Of a stretch of 64,000 nt of DNA, positions 4,501 to 42,486 are shown one piece after another. The notes under the pieces are model-generated. The model saw only the letters and a list, made by a program, of their open reading frames with translations. It was not told the origin of the DNA and did no database searches. Made by a program: the position numbers and the translations under genes. The stretch's first letter is position 1. Each line of letters starts with the position of its first letter. Origin of the DNA: a bacterium (GTDB lineage: Bacteria > 4484-113); contig JAGGTK010000033.1 of the NCBI GenBank assembly GCA_021163765.1, forward strand, positions 5,923-69,922. Direction: 5' to 3'.

Positions 4501-4742
4501 AAAGCGCCCGTGGGGAATACGACCTTGCATTGCCGGAAAGAGATTTCCGTGCCGAAGCGCGTCACCAGCGCACGCTCCTGAGTGGGGCCGTGCTCGGATT
4601 CGCGCAGCTCCTCGGCGGTCTTCTCCGGTTCAGTGCGGCTGACAGCCTTTCCGGTCGGGCCGACGCTCTGGCAGGCTGCGAGCGCGAGCGCTATCGCCAA
4701 ACCGCTTATCGCCAGCATCAGACGGATGATGTGTCTTTTCAT
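1476..4742 (-). CDS. Large lipoprotein: ZU5-like domain, several PKD domains, C-terminal TolB/WD-like beta-propeller
   Basis: LALAAC lipobox; ZU5-like VVFPTGAFSEDIYV...LDKPALLSLHY; PKD motifs (VEFSAAESSDPDGEILRYIWDF, GGEPPYTFGWTFSDG, LHWEFGDG); propeller repeats (SDDGKTIAYS, SPDGRLILAY). Confidence 0.85.
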   Translation of the reverse strand: MKRHIIRLMLAISGLAIALALAACQSVGPTGKAVSRTEPEKTAEELRESEHGPTQERALVTRFGTEISFRQCKVVFPTGAFSEDIYVAIAFPEDAPEGFVTESAYSITPETVPLDKPALLSLHYFDDDLEASEDESDIKLVRLVEGLWMPVGDFTLDIYNNIVTASIDRLGVFALMVIAPRTPLINDPPVARITYEIILPGEEEETPAEEPAAEEEAPEAPEGVAPADEVIEEPASPAEPEAEGAPQAPADGVPPIANPVPIGANEEGLPGEEYAVEEEAPARTMPDEELDDAEVIEPEDTAHKRRESFLVETPEEPVKPEPTIGATVEFSAAESSDPDGEILRYIWDFNADGVADRVSSTPEATREYDTYGSLLAILQVEDDAEPVGRDVTFAAFEIQRDPLAPKLPFKVNSVAFPAETKSGGKVVLGAAATGGEPPYTFGWTFSDGTTADEPAVILVPGRKGELTGNLTVTDSSGRTVQRTVSANVISAPSDVEGKPEVKVRPNRVYLDVPGKVQFEATVSGAREPVTLLVDPGFGEPLATEDRAFTLSFANAGYYIVTVTATDRAGRGAKTFVPVAVTAGESGDSGAYTSAGRLSFAVKYEKDGWTLRFEAAGAGKKTKLHWEFGDGTASDERSPKKAYAHADEYRVRLTADDGFERRFAERTLPVGGGELAAAIDLPPVVRGMVPFGLTPHAVVTGGKFPLFFRWKLGELFSEEEYPEFVLEKPGTFKLQLTVGDAKGNTYDTYPVAVEVSRTPKKFRYPVAYFAPAEDGEPRVKLSEYDGSSECTFVIGPDNPTDVTLAPQGTAIALLADDGFVAYDLAGGREIMSFTPSRGKVTEVFLTGAQELLAFNIENDRGVRGYLRSEASGILPVSERNERVVDITPDGSAILLASDKGVRMFYIDTFTGGLSGSADLFDKATCGVLTADAVSAFLLGLDGNVYQVTTESGERWQLTHDGNAKESLQVSDDGKTIAYSLQTGDIIVIRPRGDSPGMPVNLTALNGFESRNWLLSPDGRLILAYGSTGSASGLYMLNLEVDLQSASAEDLAPSFYAESTSTFAMSGHRDRFDVLLTQKKPTPEEEETGL

Positions 4743-21347: not shown

Positions 21348-22388
21348 TCAAACGATAGTTACGAGATGCTCACTGCGTTCGGTGATTTGGCCGATGACGG
21401 CGGGCTGCTCGCCCTTCTCGCCCATGATTGCCATCAGCTCGCCAAGCTCATCATTCGGGCACGCGATTAAGAGGCCGCCCGAAGTCTGGGCATCGCAAAG
21501 CAGCATTTTCTGCGCGAAGTCCGCCGCCCCGAAATCGGTGAACGCGCCGGCGAACTCGTAGTTCATTGCAGTTCCGCCCGGCACGAAGCCTGTGGCCAGT
21601 TCCATTGCTCCCTGCATCAGCGGCACCGAGGCCAGTTCGATGCGGGCTCCAACCTGTGAGCCTTCAAGGATGTGCAGCAGGTGTCCCAGCATACCGAAGC
21701 CGGTCACGTCCGTTGCCGCAGTCCGCGAGAGCGTCAGCATTGCCTCGCTTGCAGACCGGTTAAGGTGTGACATTACAGCGATCGCTGCATCCAGGGCTTT
21801 TGCAGGTGCTTTCTCGCTCATGCCGGCTGTCGTGATGATGCCGCTCCCAAGCGGTTTGGTGAGTACGATGGCGTCGCCGGGCTGCGCAGCATCCGCGCCG
21901 ATTATCTTATCCGGGTGTGCGATTCCCGTGACAGCCAGGCCGAAGGCCGGCTCCGGCAGCTTCAGGGAGTGCCCGCCAACGATAGGCGCGTCGGCTTCCG
22001 CAGCCACTTCGTTCGCGCCCGTCAGCATCTCGCTGGCTGCCCACGCGGGGAAGTCCTTGGCCGGTATAGCCATAATGGCCAGGCACGTCACCGGACGCCC
22101 GCCCATGGCGTAAACGTCCGAGAGGGAGTTCGCGGCGGCAATGCGCCCGTACTGGCGCGGATCGTCCACGACCGCCGTGAAGACATCCACCGTCTGGATG
22201 AGCGCCAGCTCGTCGCTTAATCGAATAATGCCCGCATCATCGCCGCTAGCGATGCTCGTGATGATTTCCGGCTTCGTGAAAAAGCCTACTTCCTTCAGGA
22301 TGGCCTCCAGGTCTGCCTGACCCACTTTGGAGGCTCATCCGGCACAGGACGCGTAGGAGGTCAGCCGGATTTTGCGGGACTCATTCAC
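21348..22388 (-). CDS. selD: Selenide, water dikinase, selenocysteine-containing (in-frame UGA at 22337-22335)
   Basis: The ORF track starts at 22325, but the frame extends 21 codons upstream: MNESRKIRLTSYASCAG-U-ASKVGQADL. Also GDDAG, QTVDVF, AANSLSDVYAMGG, TDVTGFGMLGH, DAQTSGGLL. Confidence 0.93.
22303..22334 (-). promoter_or_regulatory. SECIS-like hairpin of selD
   Basis: Immediately 3' of the UGA: GCCUCC-AAAGUG-GGUC-AGGCA-GACC-U-GGAGGC, i.e. a 6-bp lower stem, 4-bp upper stem and G-containing loop. Confidence 0.75.
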
Positions 22389-36545: not shown

Positions 36546-36645
36546 TATTTAGCGTGCCTCCATCTGCCGTACGCGCAAGGGTAGCTGTATTCGGGTCTAA
36601 TTGGGTATAATAGAGCGGTAAACTTCACCTATGAGGTGTAAGAAT

Positions 36646-39600
36646 ATGATGAGAATAACGATTTGGCTCTGGGTGGTCATTCTGATTGCCGCGTTCGCAG
36701 TTGCCTGTGGCGGCGGCAGTAGCGGTCGCGCTCCGATCGCGCCGTCTCAGGAGACTGGCGGCGGAGAACCACCCTCTGACGAGGGCCAACCGTTCTCGGT
36801 GGTGCTAACGGCGACCCCTGACCAGGGACCGACCCCGCTGACGGTTAGCTTCTCAGCCTACGCGTTCGGGGGCTACCCTTCGTATTCGTACGAATGGGAC
36901 TTTGACGGAGACGGAGTAGCCGACTCGAACGCTGTCGACCCGTACTGGACATTCAATAACAGTGCGATTGTCGCAGTCAAGATAACCGATTCGCGTCACC
37001 AGACGGTTACAGTTAGCAAATCGATTACGGTAACCGCCCCAACGGGCGAAACCGGTGGGACTGGAACCCAACCGCTGGTGGTACGATTCCAACCTTCAGT
37101 TAATTCAGGCCCCGCTCCCTTACGGGTGCAGTTCACGGCTCTGGTGACTGGTGGGAGCTCGCCATATGGGTTCATCTGGGATTTCGAGGGCGACGGCGTC
37201 CCCGACAGCAACAGTGAAAATCCGGTGTTCGTCTACGAGCAGCCCGGCCCGCAGATTGGTGATGACTCCTACTTTTACTATCCTGTGCTGACCGTGGTGG
37301 ACAACCGGGGCGTTGAGGTATCCACGGCAGACGACCTGAATGGTGATGGCGAGCCCGATTGGCCTGTCGCGATCAACGTGGTACCGCCATCGGCTCTGCT
37401 GGCCTACGCCGCGGCGAATCCCGGTTCCGGCCAGGCTCCGCTGCCGGTGGTATTCAGCGGTGGCGCTTCGGGCGGAGAACCGCCCTATGAGTTCTACTGG
37501 GATTTCGGAGACGGCACTTACCGCGATTTCGACTCCTCTGTAGTAGCCCAGCACACATACGTGGCGACGGGCAACTACAACGCCCTGCTGACCGTCAGGG
37601 ACAACCAGGGCGTGACGGGAACGAGCGGTATTGTCCCGGTCTACGTGAGCCAGGAAGTCACCTTTAAAGTTCGCATCGAGGCCGACGCGACAGAAGGCCC
37701 TGTCCCCTTCAACGTGCAGCTCACGAGCTACACCGAGGGCGGCAAGGAGCCGGTTCATTACAACTGGGAGGTTTTCACTGACCTTGTTCCGGCCGGAGAG
37801 GAGCCCGTTATTGTGCTCCCGCCCACGTACCCGATGCCGGTGAAAGACCCTCAGGCGATTGTGGTGCCGGATAGGACATCTGACCCCAACCCGGTGATAA
37901 CTTTCGCGACTTACGTTGGCCAGTATGTCGATATGAACGCCAACGAAGCTTACGATGCCGGCGAAGGCGTAGGTGCTCCTTATGTTGTCCGCCTTGTGGC
38001 GAAAGACGACAACGGTGTGGAAGCGGTTAGTAACCTGCTCCGCATCGAGCCGCGTCCGCCCGAGCCCGATACGCTTTACCGCGCCGAGCGCGCCCCGACA
38101 ATCGGCTGGTCAATCTACGGCGGCAACTCCGTCGGCGGCAACCTGCCGGCATTCAGCGCGCGCGCCAATCCTGCAGTAGCTACGCACCCTTCCGGTATGG
38201 TGTACCTGTTCGGTGGCGATGTCTACAATGACGCGGGCGAGTTTACGGGAATCGTGGATCTCCCCAAGTCGTCTTATGCGCTGAACCTGACCGGCACCGA
38301 CCGTACGCCTTCCGGTATGTTCGGCTCGGTATCAGGCGCTGGCGCAGCGGCGGGAGCCTACGAGGATGGCGGATTTACGCTGCTGAACTCGTTGCAGGGC
38401 CTCCCCTACGCGTACATTGGAATGGCGCCTACGGTGAAGACCCCGCCCACGCAAGGCAACGGCGGCCCGCCGAACTGTGGCGGCGCTTTCATGAATCGTA
38501 CGCTACAGAAGAGCGTGCCGTTTGAGCCGCGCGGCTCGGCGGCGGCTACAATGGTGCACGAGGACTGGGACCTGAATCCCGGCGGTTTCGGCTCGTGCCC
38601 CGGATGACAGCCGCGTCCAGACTTAGGCCCAGGTTGGGCCTTGGGTAATGGAGGATACGGCGTTCCGGTGTTCTACGTGTTCGGCGGCCGAAACGAAAGC
38701 GGCGAGCCTCTGGACGTGGTGCAGAAGTACTACCCGGAGACCTACGGTGTCGAGGACCAGTTCCCGATACTGTTCTTCCCCGGTCCGGTAGCGCAGTACG
38801 TGAACGCTCAGACCGACATCTGGTCGGATCGTTTTCAGTTCCACGACTACGACTGGCTCCCGCAGAAAGATCAGTGCATCAACACACCTATCGTGCCGGA
38901 CCGTCCTCCGACACAGGGCGGTGGCGGCCAGGGCGCTGTGCCTTTGAATACGCTTCCCGAGCCGCTTTACGGGCACGCTGCGGTGACTCTCGAGTCTAAA
39001 GGTAACCTGTTCCCGCCGCCCGTGTGGCCGGAATCGCATTACTGCTACGTGTTCATCCTCGGCGGTATCAACGACAGCGGCGTACCGGTTGCCACGATGC
39101 GCTGGTTCAATGTTTGGGCAACCCCGGCCGAGCGCCAGCAGGATGAGGAGCCCTCTGCGGGAGACTACTCAGTTGTCTCGGAGATGCCGGTAGAGCGCGC
39201 ATATCACAGAGCGTTTGTAACACTGCCTGACAAGCTCACCGACAAACCGTGGCGGATAGTTGTCGTTGGCGGTTTCGACCGGAACGGCAATTACATCTCG
39301 CAGGTGGACGAGTACACCTTCGACAGCATTACAGACCCGAGGACGGGTACGTGGAGAACGGTAGCCAACGTTTCGGAGGCTGCTGCTGGTGCTGGAGCAG
39401 GCTGGCAGGAAGACGACCGTGGAATGGTGTATCGCCAGATGGGCGGTCGCACGGTTGACGGTTACACCGGCTCGGTGTATGACGTGCTGTCAAACGGATC
39501 GATGTCCCTGGCTCCCACGGGGCTGATTCCGCGTGGATGGGCCGGAGCAACCGGTGTCAGGGTGTATAACGACTTCTACACACCTGGTGGAGACTTCTAT

Positions 39601-39660
39601 ATTGTCGGTGGCCTGACCCAGATGGGGATGGACACCATTGTTGAGCATTACCGGCCGTAG
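36646..39660 (+). CDS. PKD-repeat / Kelch-propeller lipoprotein, candidate selenoprotein (in-frame UGA 38605-38607 in CPGU)
   Basis: ORFs 36631-38607 and 38641-39660 are in the same frame, separated by one TGA and 33 sense nt. AVAC lipobox; PKD motifs (YEWDFDGDG, FIWDFEGDG, FYWDFGDG); six Kelch GG blades only when joined. Start at 36646 (GAGGTG RBS) or 36631. Confidence 0.75.
38608..38651 (+). promoter_or_regulatory. Candidate SECIS hairpin after the UGA of the PKD/Kelch gene
   Basis: GGCCC-AGGUU-GGGCC at 38626-38640, extendable by ACUUA/UUGGGU pairing; the loop begins 23 nt after the UGA. Confidence 0.55.
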
Positions 39661-39705
39661 AAAGCCGGACGTTCGTGACCCCGATGGTTGGGAGGACGTA
39701 ACCTG

Positions 39706-42486
39706 ATGAAAGTGTTGAGAGCAATCGGTACTTTACTGATACTTCTCGCTGCCGTCGCCGCTTGTGGCGGCGGCGGCAGCAAGGGGAGCATATCCCTGCC
39801 GAGCCAAACGGATGGCAACGGTGACGAGAGCGATCTGAAGATCGTCACGTATACCGCATCTCCCACCACCGGTGGGTCGCCTCTGGGTGTCAACTTCATT
39901 GTCACCATAACCGGCGGGGAGCTCCCTTTCACGTACATGTGGGACTTCGACAATGACGGGGCATTTGACTTCTACGTCAACGAGGTCGCAAGACGCACGG
40001 AACAGTCATACCACCTTTACTACTTGCGGAACGCTGACGTTCTCCAGGGATCGTCCCTCTACCAGGCGGTGGTAAGGGTGAAGGATAACGCCGGTGTGGT
40101 TCGTACCAGCGAGCCGGTGTCAATCCTGATTACGGACGTTCCACAGTTCGCGCTCGACTCTGCACTGACGCGCATTATCAGTGACACTGTAGTCGGGTAC
40201 GACCAGGAAGGGCAGCCGATCTACGCCTACCTTTCCGGTGAGCCGGTTTACTGCCGTGTGTTCCCTGATCCTTCGAGCCCCGGCACTCCTCCCTACCGTT
40301 TCCAGTGGGACTTCGACGGTGACGGGCGGATTGACTCGACCCTGCAGAATCCTCAGTACACCTTCACTGTGCTTGAGGGCGAGTCCGAATCCTTCATCGT
40401 CAATCTGACCGTAACCGACTCCAACGACTACTCGATTACGCGTCAGTTCCCTCTGACGGTGATCAGGCATTTGCCGGAAGAACCCACGGGGCCTCCGGAG
40501 CTTATTGTGAACAGCGCCCCGCCGATTCGGCCTGATGGAACGATCCTGATAGAGTTCGATTCCGCAAGCGACTTCCCTGCCGACCGGGAGCCTCATATGA
40601 ACGCCAGCGTGACGGTATCCCCGGACCATCCGGGCGTGCTTCCGTACGCGTACTTCTGGGACTTCACCAACGACGGCATATACGACGCGAACACGACATC
40701 AGTGTCGGTGCCCTATTACGATTCCGACCTGAACATTTCCATTAACCCGTACAATACGTTTGGCCAGGCGACGCGGGACTTCACTCTGGCGCTGCATTTC
40801 GTCGATGGTATCGGTCAGATAGTGCACCTTGAATGGCCGGTGCGCGTGGTAGATCGCGCCTATGAGCCCGTTGTGGATCCGCTGCTCACTGAAGCCACGG
40901 TCGACATCAACAATGACGGCGTCTACGATGTCCTTGAAGATGGGACCTACGCCGAGCAGGCTAGCACCGTCGCTCTGGCCAGCGACCTGGTTGTTCACTT
41001 TCAGGTGGCTGCGAGCGGCGTGACGGAAAGGCCGGGGTTGTATCGCTTCCAGATTGACATCCTGGGTAACGGCGTATACGCCGAGGATATCAACGAGGGC
41101 GATTCGGACAACCCGATTTATGACCAGACTCTGGAATGGGATCCCGACTATGACGGGATATACGAAGATGTGGATCTTGATGGAGATTCGGAGACGCTCA
41201 ACGAGGCTAGGGTGAACATTACGCCGCAGCCGGGCGGCAAGGAGATTGCCATATTCGAGATCAAATACCCGGCGAATCTCCTGCCCGGATACAAGGCGGT
41301 TCGCACCAAGGTGATAGCAACATCCGAGAGCGGGCTTGAGCTGGCGAGCCGCGTCAACCATGTGCCTGTGTCGCTGGTGGTACCCAGCAGTATCGATTTC
41401 TCTGCCACCGGTGATCCGTTCAGGATGCGTCGCGACTTCGGGATGGCGGCGGTTACCGTCATTGACGACAACGGCACCCCGGACCTGACCGACGACTTCC
41501 TGTCGCAGCGGCGCGTGTTCCTCGTCGGCGGCATGGACGGCAATGTTGCGCTGCGCAGCGTTCAACTCCTGACACAGGAGGCATTGGTGACCACCGGGGA
41601 ATGGGTAGGCCAGGTCAGCGTCAGTGACCGTCTGCCCCTGTCCACGCCTCGGGGACAACTGGCTGCGGAGCCGCTCGGCGGATTCACGAGAGGTGCGAAC
41701 TCGGTCGGCATTTACGCGATTGGCGGCATCAACAATGTTGACCAGACGCTTTCGGTGGTTGAGATGCTCCCGAGTTTCGACGGCGACGGCACCGACTATC
41801 CAACGGTGCCGTGGACGACAGTCGGTTCTATCGGGAACAACAACACGCAGCTAAGGCTTATGTCTTCCGCTTACGGCGTGTCCTACGGAGGTGGGTCATC
41901 GCTCATCGTTATAGGTGGCCTGCAAGGCAATCCTCCGGGCGAGCACGTGAGTGGTACCGGCTGGGTGTTCAGGCCGCAAGACAACGCCTGGTTTAGCTCG
42001 GCCATCAGCCCGATGCCGACGCCCCGGTATGACTTCGCCGCGGTTCTTGACTTCCCGTACCTGTACGCGATTGGCGGAAGAAGCAACGCTGGCGTGAGCA
42101 CGCGAACCGTTGAGAGAGTCCGCCTTGACACCGGGGGCTGGGAGATAATGCCGGATATGAAGTTCTCGCGGGCAGGCGCTGCCGCGGAGATAATCAACGG
42201 CAAGATCTATGTCTACGGTGGCGTTGACTATCCTCAGGATAAGAGCGCGCCCGAGTATATCGGCACGTCGGAAGTGTTCAATCCTGACACTTACGTCTGG
42301 TCCAAGACGGTCGGTCCGGCCCAGGGGCGTGCGGGCGCAGGCTCTGCGGCCCTGTTCACGTACCTGGATGCGGAAGGCAACCCGATGCCCAATGACACAG
42401 TGTGGATAATGGGCGGCGAGACTGCTAACGGTCCCATTGGAACGCTGGCCCAGCTCTACATCGAAGGCGTTGGAAACATAGACTAA
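39706..42486 (+). CDS. PKD-repeat / Kelch-propeller lipoprotein with many DxDxDG loops (paralog of the upstream gene)
   Basis: VAACGGG lipobox; YMWDFDNDG, FQWDFDGDG, YFWDFTNDG; Kelch blades RVFLVGG, IYAIGG, LIVIGG, LYAIGG, IYVYGG, VWIMGG; GGAGG RBS. Confidence 0.87.
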   Translation: MKVLRAIGTLLILLAAVAACGGGGSKGSISLPSQTDGNGDESDLKIVTYTASPTTGGSPLGVNFIVTITGGELPFTYMWDFDNDGAFDFYVNEVARRTEQSYHLYYLRNADVLQGSSLYQAVVRVKDNAGVVRTSEPVSILITDVPQFALDSALTRIISDTVVGYDQEGQPIYAYLSGEPVYCRVFPDPSSPGTPPYRFQWDFDGDGRIDSTLQNPQYTFTVLEGESESFIVNLTVTDSNDYSITRQFPLTVIRHLPEEPTGPPELIVNSAPPIRPDGTILIEFDSASDFPADREPHMNASVTVSPDHPGVLPYAYFWDFTNDGIYDANTTSVSVPYYDSDLNISINPYNTFGQATRDFTLALHFVDGIGQIVHLEWPVRVVDRAYEPVVDPLLTEATVDINNDGVYDVLEDGTYAEQASTVALASDLVVHFQVAASGVTERPGLYRFQIDILGNGVYAEDINEGDSDNPIYDQTLEWDPDYDGIYEDVDLDGDSETLNEARVNITPQPGGKEIAIFEIKYPANLLPGYKAVRTKVIATSESGLELASRVNHVPVSLVVPSSIDFSATGDPFRMRRDFGMAAVTVIDDNGTPDLTDDFLSQRRVFLVGGMDGNVALRSVQLLTQEALVTTGEWVGQVSVSDRLPLSTPRGQLAAEPLGGFTRGANSVGIYAIGGINNVDQTLSVVEMLPSFDGDGTDYPTVPWTTVGSIGNNNTQLRLMSSAYGVSYGGGSSLIVIGGLQGNPPGEHVSGTGWVFRPQDNAWFSSAISPMPTPRYDFAAVLDFPYLYAIGGRSNAGVSTRTVERVRLDTGGWEIMPDMKFSRAGAAAEIINGKIYVYGGVDYPQDKSAPEYIGTSEVFNPDTYVWSKTVGPAQGRAGAGSAALFTYLDAEGNPMPNDTVWIMGGETANGPIGTLAQLYIEGVGNID

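Follow-up and report, generated by a model that had tools for sequence, protein, structure and literature searches.

Within a 64,000-nt window of contig JAGGTK010000033.1 (assembly GCA_021163765.1, positions 5,923 to 69,922 of the forward strand; "the window" below means this whole stretch), which comes from a bacterium of phylum 4484-113 in the Genome Taxonomy Database (GTDB), two open reading frames (ORFs) of the + strand share one frame and are parted only by a TGA codon. According to a table-11 ORF listing, the first of them (36631-38607, 658 amino acids (aa)) terminates at the TGA at 38605-38607, in the context tgc ccc gga TGA cag ccg cgt, while the second (38641-39660, 339 aa) is called from a TTG start, with no further stop in between. 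The original prediction made on this DNA had described this arrangement, with which the ORF listing and the translation agree, and had proposed that the TGA encodes selenocysteine (Sec). Read through, the gene spans 36631..39660 (+), with 1009 codons plus a TAG, and its 1009-aa product reads NPGGFGSCPG-U-QPRPDLGPGWALGNGGYGVPVFYVFGGR, the residues that follow Sec659 being QPRPDLGPGW; homologs made of a single ORF have 962-1014 aa. An alternative ATG start at 36646 (+) agrees with the called homolog P0007. As argued below, UGA 38605-38607 is very probably decoded as Sec within one polypeptide of ~1009 aa, a selenoprotein built on a PKD-Kelch scaffold.

The predicted chain begins with a lipoprotein-type signal, MRCKNMMRITIWLWVVILIAAFAVAC/GGG (also written WVVILIAAFAVAC/GGG, the lipobox ending in AAFAVAC/GGG), and the protein is therefore predicted to be exported and membrane-anchored. 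This signal peptide with its lipobox occupies 36631..36708 (+), the codon of the putatively lipidated Cys26 being 36706-36708, and C26-G27-G28 is invariant across the family alignment. It had been called a surface lipoprotein, of which the lipoprotein-type signal stands and the surface location was not borne out. A stalk of about four PKD (Ig-like) domains follows (residues ~55-475; 36793..38055, +), found by Pfam with PKD_4 (58.1 bits, cut-off 27) and PKD (46.2 bits, cut-off 23.5), which both pass the gathering score, and also visible as beta-sandwich strands in a full-length AlphaFold model. Residues ~505-1009 (38143..39657, +) correspond to a six-bladed Kelch beta-propeller with unusually long loops, as judged from a model (mb1eb80890c9e) and Foldseek. 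Pfam matches to Kelch are marginal (19-22 bits, with only Kelch_4 barely above its cut-off of 21.6 bits), so the proposed PKD stalk was recovered from Pfam and the proposed Kelch part from the model; an NCBIfam scan of the protein gave nothing useful.

The propeller-only model, built from 24 sequences, reached a pLDDT (predicted local distance difference test) of 78 and a pTM (predicted template modelling score) of 0.87, and it superseded the full-length model (13 sequences, pLDDT 57.6), which was too poor for the propeller. It displays six four-stranded blades that close a ring and the GG doublet after strand B that is typical of Kelch folds. Its best PDB matches in Foldseek were six-bladed Kelch domains (KLHL3, KLHL12, Keap1 and NS1-BP; TM-score up to 0.77 normalised to the target, probability 1.0), and almost all of the top 50 were six-bladed Kelch domains, natural or designed; a PDB search by sequence gave marginal KLHL12 matches only. 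The UGA falls in blade 3, between strand A (PRGSAAATMV, residues 638-644; model residues 157-163) and strand B (VFYVFGG, residues 678-684; model residues 197-203), Sec659 being model residue 178. Sec659 and Cys656 sit together in a 33-residue loop that was modelled with a pLDDT below 50 and that is flanked by the family-invariant residues E644, N649 and D664. In Kelch domains, the canonical ligand face is that of the D-A/B-C loops, and the A-B loops are found on the opposite one. Neither Pfam nor the model showed a thioredoxin-like domain, and CxxU is placed in a Kelch-blade loop, not at the N-terminus of a helix. The original prediction, which placed the UGA between strands 1 and 2 of one blade and held that the propeller is complete only with read-through, thus gains support from the model: a stop at the UGA would leave a propeller fragment split in blade 3 and unable to close, and only read-through would close the ring.

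Among 5.8 billion proteins, a homolog search picked up six full-length relatives (962-1014 aa) and, besides the window's own fragment, eight distinct truncated clusters (62-79% identity over the matched part), all of which stop exactly after G-x-G-x-C-P-[GS]. When the contigs of six truncated clusters were inspected, along with L014 and L015, the two nearest genome contigs that have a stop at this point, the stop was a TGA in every one and never a TAA or TAG, and past it the frame stayed open over ~350 codons that encode the conserved remainder of the propeller; the exceptions to this open frame are L094, whose contig ends 22 codons past the TGA, and the JGI contig L095, which is frameshifted. 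This frameshift (L095 / L139; JGI Ga0172366_10028028) lies about 15 codons past the TGA on a low-coverage contig and is probably an assembly error, or else marks a decaying copy. Taken together, the inspected contigs, a metagenome scan and whole-genome searches yield, apart from the window, 10 distinct orthologous sequences with a TGA at one aligned codon; they represent three genera of the genome search and a set of unplaced metagenome contigs (f1 Sec-type orthologs: genomes G001, G002, G003, G007 and G004; metagenome contigs L093-L098, L133-L138, L140 and L143). The ortholog of the same-genus genome G001, which shares the TGA, is 88% identical, and identity drops to 52%, the lowest value, in the metagenome-assembled genome (MAG) "Planctomycetales bacterium 4484_113". 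All Sec forms of family f1 other than this MAG keep C-P-[GST]-U, in which Cys656 (38596..38598, +) is the partner of Sec. The 4484_113 MAG (L015 / L108 / L150) has Pro in place of the Cys of CxxU (A-P-P-G-U) and a new Cys 7 residues past Sec (U-TVGYPD-C), a shift of the partner Cys, and the related contig L143 retains C-P-T-U.

Pairwise ratios of nonsynonymous to synonymous substitution (dN/dS) were 0.13-0.23 downstream of the TGA and 0.10-0.20 upstream of it, and these low downstream values, which reflect purifying selection like that acting upstream, indicate that the downstream part is translated in the frame of the TGA. Orthologs that lack the TGA are single ORFs of 962-1016 aa, rather than pairs of separate genes.

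A hairpin of the SECIS (selenocysteine insertion sequence) type, which had also been anticipated, lies at 38621..38646 (+), its core being A-GGCCC-AGGUU-GGGCC-U at 38625-38641. The stem-loop GGCCC-AGGUU-GGGCC itself (38626-38640) starts 17 nt past the UGA, and the 71-nt stretch that contains both the UGA and the hairpin folds better than all 200 shuffled versions (z = -3.6). Across an alignment of 11 distinct f1 sequences, a 7-bp helix is paired in 97.4% of cells, with compensatory changes at pairs 24-40 (GC/AU), 27-37 (UA/CG) and 26-38 (GC/CG). None of 500 shuffles matched the observed percentage of pairing or the covariation score, and 20 of 500 had as many compensated pairs. Pairing fell to 61-68% when the 3' partner was shifted by a single column. 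One covarying pair joins a synonymous third position of a Gly codon with a non-synonymous first position (Ala/Thr/Val/Ile), indicating that the hairpin is kept at a cost to the protein sequence. Synonymous sites of the Pro and Gly codons of the loop are fixed among the Sec forms, but in L017, which lacks Sec, they are relaxed. As a genome background, 1.7% of TGAs have a hairpin of at least 5 bp with a GGU loop within 8-30 nt downstream, and the selD gene of the same genome carries a hairpin similar to that of the PKD-Kelch gene. An Rfam gathering scan of the window returned no match and no bacterial SECIS family.

The gene selD (21348..22388, - strand) is itself a selenoprotein gene and shows that UGA is decoded as Sec in this organism: it matches TIGR00476 (342.7 bits) and contains one TGA at 22335-22337, translated in the context SYASCAG-U-ASK (C-A-G-U-A-S-K), as the original prediction had read it. 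The ORF caller places the selD start downstream of this TGA. Elsewhere in the genome, we found a tRNA-Sec on contig C73 (70.3 bits, exceeding the Rfam cut-off; called SeC(tca) by ARAGORN) and selA (450 bits, Pfam SelA domain); in the window, ARAGORN found no tRNA. A lack of selABC in the genome had been named as something that would refute the proposal; tRNA-Sec, selA and selD were present, and selB was not found in this incomplete assembly. The same-genus genome G001 encodes a SelB of 662 aa with GTP_EFTU and SelB-wing_3 domains, and 19 of 21 relatives have SelB-type matches. A global reassignment of TGA is out, since TGA is the ordinary stop of 360 of the 1077 long ORFs in the genome. A home-made genome-wide codon-usage screen for other in-frame TGAs was swamped by adjacent genes in the same frame and did not even rank selD.

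In the genome collection, the phylum of the window comprises 24 species genomes (1.5-4.1 Mb), which fits the GTDB phylum 4484-113, for which 12 genomes (1.54-4.11 Mb) have been listed, with bioreactors and activated sludge as habitats (PMC11382960). The propeller is present in 21 of these 24 and in 13/13 of the high-quality ones, so the family is near-universal in the phylum, and the gene order pepP-efp-selenoprotein gene-Sec-free PKD/Kelch paralog is conserved. NCBI records of the relatives' MAGs (L014-L017, L147-L162) are labelled "Planctomycetales bacterium", "bacterium" or "UBP7", and the genome collection treats them as a separate phylum (GTDB 4484-113); an identity as anammox bacteria or Planctomycetes was therefore rejected. 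On a maximum-likelihood tree, the f1 Sec forms all fall in one clade; nested in it, with 100/100 support, are two sequences without Sec, G006/L107 and P0003. L017 represents the G006 gene that L107 and L149 also stand for, and in it the TGA has become CTA (Leu), the Cys has become Asp and the hairpin is gone; the genome still carries selB. The nested position of the Sec-free pair, taken together with the Leu codon of L017, points to one gain and one loss of Sec in f1.

Further probable Sec sites were detected elsewhere in the family. In genus g8 of family f2 (G013 and G015), a TGA occupies the same A-B loop at a place 17-24 alignment columns beyond the f1 site, in the motif C-H-G-W-G-C-D-A-G-[SG]-U-G-T-I-D-G (sequences L116 from G015, L118 from G013, and L144/L145/L161), and the hairpins of the two species (GGCAC-GGGC-GUGCC and GGCGC-AGGU-GCGCC) differ by a compensatory change from A-U to G-C. 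An f2-like ortholog on a related metagenome contig, L163 (JGI Ga0589154_00002891, positions 4547-4555), has two in-frame TGAs 6 nt apart with one Ala codon between them (GWGLET-U-A-U-GNPPGTGVPV); the second corresponds to the g8 Sec in the alignment, neither Cys is present, and a single hairpin (GGCAC-AGGU-GUGCC) lies 18 and 12 nt downstream of the two TGAs, which makes a U-x-U diselenide motif served by one SECIS a possible reading of this sequence. In family f3, species G019 (L128 / L156, MAG AUK090) has a TGA at ORF codon 760 (P-D-C-G-G-U-G-Q). The loop concerned is another one, of the D-A type, which lies between blades 3 and 4 and corresponds to residues ~758-768 of the window protein, and a hairpin GUGCA-GGU-UGCAC stands 12 nt past the TGA. 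The truncated G019 product occurs on five contigs from several sources, all from the one species from which the site is known, and its closest relatives have Cys-free, G-rich loops there, a congener having neither TGA nor Cys. These extra sites (GSU, UAU and CGGU) are supported by one to three sequences each, and every one combines a nearby Cys or Sec with a hairpin that has a GG(U) loop; we consider them probably real. Throughout the family, a second Cys or Sec lies within 2-9 residues of every Sec site, the spacings being CP[GST]U, U-x6-C, C-x4-C-x4-U, U-A-U and CGGU.

Considering how else the in-frame TGA could be explained, we first compared these data with a split gene, in which translation would end at the TGA and the remaining 339-350 codons would yield a second protein from an internal start of their own. 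Gene callers do annotate two ORFs in every assembly, and the TTG at 38641 could act as a start; as had been pointed out, this TTG fragment has no signal peptide. However, the called internal starts vary among orthologs, the downstream piece would start amid the beta-strands of blade 3 and, lacking a signal peptide, would have no way to meet the exported N-terminal part, and orthologs free of the TGA are single chains. A split gene, which would also leave unexplained why the stop is always TGA and why the hairpin covaries, is hardly credible. Read-through without Sec, whereby a near-cognate tRNA would insert Trp, Cys or Arg at the UGA under stimulation by the hairpin, has some points in its favour: downstream structures can stimulate UGA read-through in other systems (PMC3159437), and the identity of residue 659 as Sec is deduced from sequence. 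Yet the size, spacing and G-G-U loop of the hairpin are those of a bacterial SECIS, with a similar one in selD; the lineage retains the full Sec machinery, its selB being known from relatives; and a Cys or second TGA is always near the site, which fits chalcogen chemistry better than a neutral residue. We thus see this explanation as very unlikely. As for a nonsense mutation, pseudogene or assembly error, it could draw on nothing but a bare in-frame stop and the frameshift of L095/L139, and the comparative data in effect refute it, the same TGA being found in 10 distinct orthologs of independent assemblies with a low dN/dS downstream; its probability is close to nil.

Several observations nevertheless weigh against Sec at this codon or against the proposed setting of the protein. 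Selenoproteins usually have homologs in which Cys pairs with Sec (PMC12013277). The homolog comparison at the UGA codon, on which the original prediction would have had the matter decided, gave the shared TGA but no such pairing: no homolog with a Cys aligned with Sec was found by word-indexed protein searches, an exhaustive HMMER search, the metagenome scan or genome scans. Homologs free of the TGA have a different, Cys-free loop at this position, and one lineage has Leu; some orthologs thus carry neither Sec nor Cys. The selenium itself is deduced from comparing sequences, and the placement of the Sec loop on the propeller is of low confidence. Moreover, selB, lgt and lspA were not found in this assembly, which is 78.6% complete. 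Since lgt and lspA are present in 22 of the 24 genomes of the phylum, and both congeners have all three genes, incompleteness of the assembly is the likely cause of the three gaps, and absence calls in this MAG are not to be trusted. Cys-aligned homologs are, for their part, a usual correlate of selenoproteins and not a mechanistic requirement. Reading the UGA as Sec therefore relies on the conservation of the TGA, purifying selection downstream of it, covariation in the SECIS and the Sec machinery, rather than on Sec/Cys pairing, and on these grounds we hold insertion of Sec at position 659 to be highly probable.

In the mechanism that we propose, SelB-GTP-Sec-tRNA(Sec) would bind the hairpin on the mRNA under translation and insert Sec659, after which the chain would be exported unfolded, lipidated at Cys26 and anchored in the membrane, so that the roughly four PKD domains would act as a stalk bearing the six-bladed Kelch propeller. 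Outside the cytoplasm, the likeliest chemistry of Sec659 and Cys656 would be that of a reversible selenenylsulfide (selenolate/thiolate) pair, and such a Se-S pair, or a Se-Se pair, could either be redox-active or capture soft ligands, for instance metals, polysulfide or thiols. A redox or capture role of the Sec loop in this compartment is a tentative proposal, which gains some support from the second Cys or Sec that stands 2-9 residues away from each Sec site of the family. Because some orthologs lack the motif, the chemistry of the loop appears non-essential to the core function of the protein, and the Sec loop would be an accessory, lineage-specific addition to a conserved scaffold.

Taking all sites together, we slightly favour the view that this phylum-specific lipoprotein is a hot spot for the de novo evolution of Sec, with at least three gains in propeller loops rich in glycine that each brought their own SECIS (C-P-G-U in f1, G-S-U extended to U-A-U in one f2 lineage and, in another loop, C-G-G-U in one f3 species), from ancestors without Cys at the site, and with one loss to Leu. 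If true, this pattern would clearly depart from the rule by which Sec derives from catalytic Cys. It would also suggest that the cell envelope of phylum 4484-113 hosts a selenium-dependent chemistry under strong selection, such as a selenol/thiol or diselenide site at the surface that serves in redox defence or captures sulfur species or metals.

Immediately downstream of the selenoprotein gene lies a tandem PKD-Kelch lipoprotein paralog without Sec (39688..42486, +; 932 aa), whose synteny is kept and which may be a partner of the selenoprotein. Its Kelch motifs are much stronger than those of the selenoprotein, and it adjoins the selenoprotein gene in all loci that were examined.

The family appears to be undescribed, as the original prediction had suggested: PKD, Kelch, propeller and lipoprotein have no mention in the main text of the 2022/2026 prokaryotic selenoproteome reviews or of the deep-Sep and BSepDB papers. 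Bacterial selenoproteins are nearly all small redox enzymes with Cys homologs, and current predictors filter on Sec/Cys pairing; such a filter would miss the PKD-Kelch family, whose gene public annotation splits into two ORFs. Confirmation would bring into the selenoproteome a Kelch-propeller lipoprotein that is exported and unlike an enzyme, and Sec would have been gained repeatedly in flexible loops, at various positions and without a Cys precursor, including a U-x-U pair apparently on one hairpin. The tolerance of SelB could then also be studied on a natural collection of short SECIS elements spaced by 11-20 nt, and functional work on a protein that occurs nearly throughout the uncultured phylum 4484-113 would gain its first point of entry.

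Compared with known systems, the predicted decoding is that of ordinary SelB/SECIS genes; what is unusual is the scaffold, the lack of homologs with Cys and the occurrence of Sec at several positions. As in such genes, of which E. coli fdhF is the archetype and which include the CxxU/UxxC thiol oxidoreductase-like selenoproteins (Prx-like, DsbA-like and AhpD-like), there is an in-frame UGA with a hairpin in the coding region within about 20 nt and a G-G-U apical loop, together with the CxxU motif and with selA, selB (in the genus), selC and selD. Unlike in them, the site has no Cys homolog, the Sec position differs among lineages of the family, and the predicted Sec lies in a long flexible loop of a Kelch propeller and not in a thioredoxin or other oxidoreductase fold. 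Exported selenoproteins such as FdnG/FdhA and [NiFeSe] hydrogenase likewise use Sec outside the cytoplasm, as predicted here; others are a multiheme cytochrome c for sulfur respiration (PMC13510729) and a predicted selenoprotein of the TonB-dependent-receptor type (PMC12013277). Those are cofactor-containing redox enzymes or a barrel receptor, whereas the present protein combines Ig-like domains with a propeller and has no recognisable cofactor motif.

Eukaryotic selenoprotein P is extracellular and has Sec next to Cys or Sec, in U-x-U-like clusters; it has no homology to the present family, uses a SECIS in its 3'-UTR (untranslated region) and serves selenium transport. Finally, the propeller resembles other six-bladed Kelch domains (Keap1, KLHL2/3/12 and NS1-BP, and bacterial mutarotases of the NanM type) in its fold, in the GG doublet after strand B and in the R-x-G-x-A of strand A, but identity to them is 10-20%, most Pfam Kelch matches are sub-threshold, its A-B and D-A loops have 30-50 residues, and it is fused to a PKD stalk and a lipid anchor and carries a predicted Sec.

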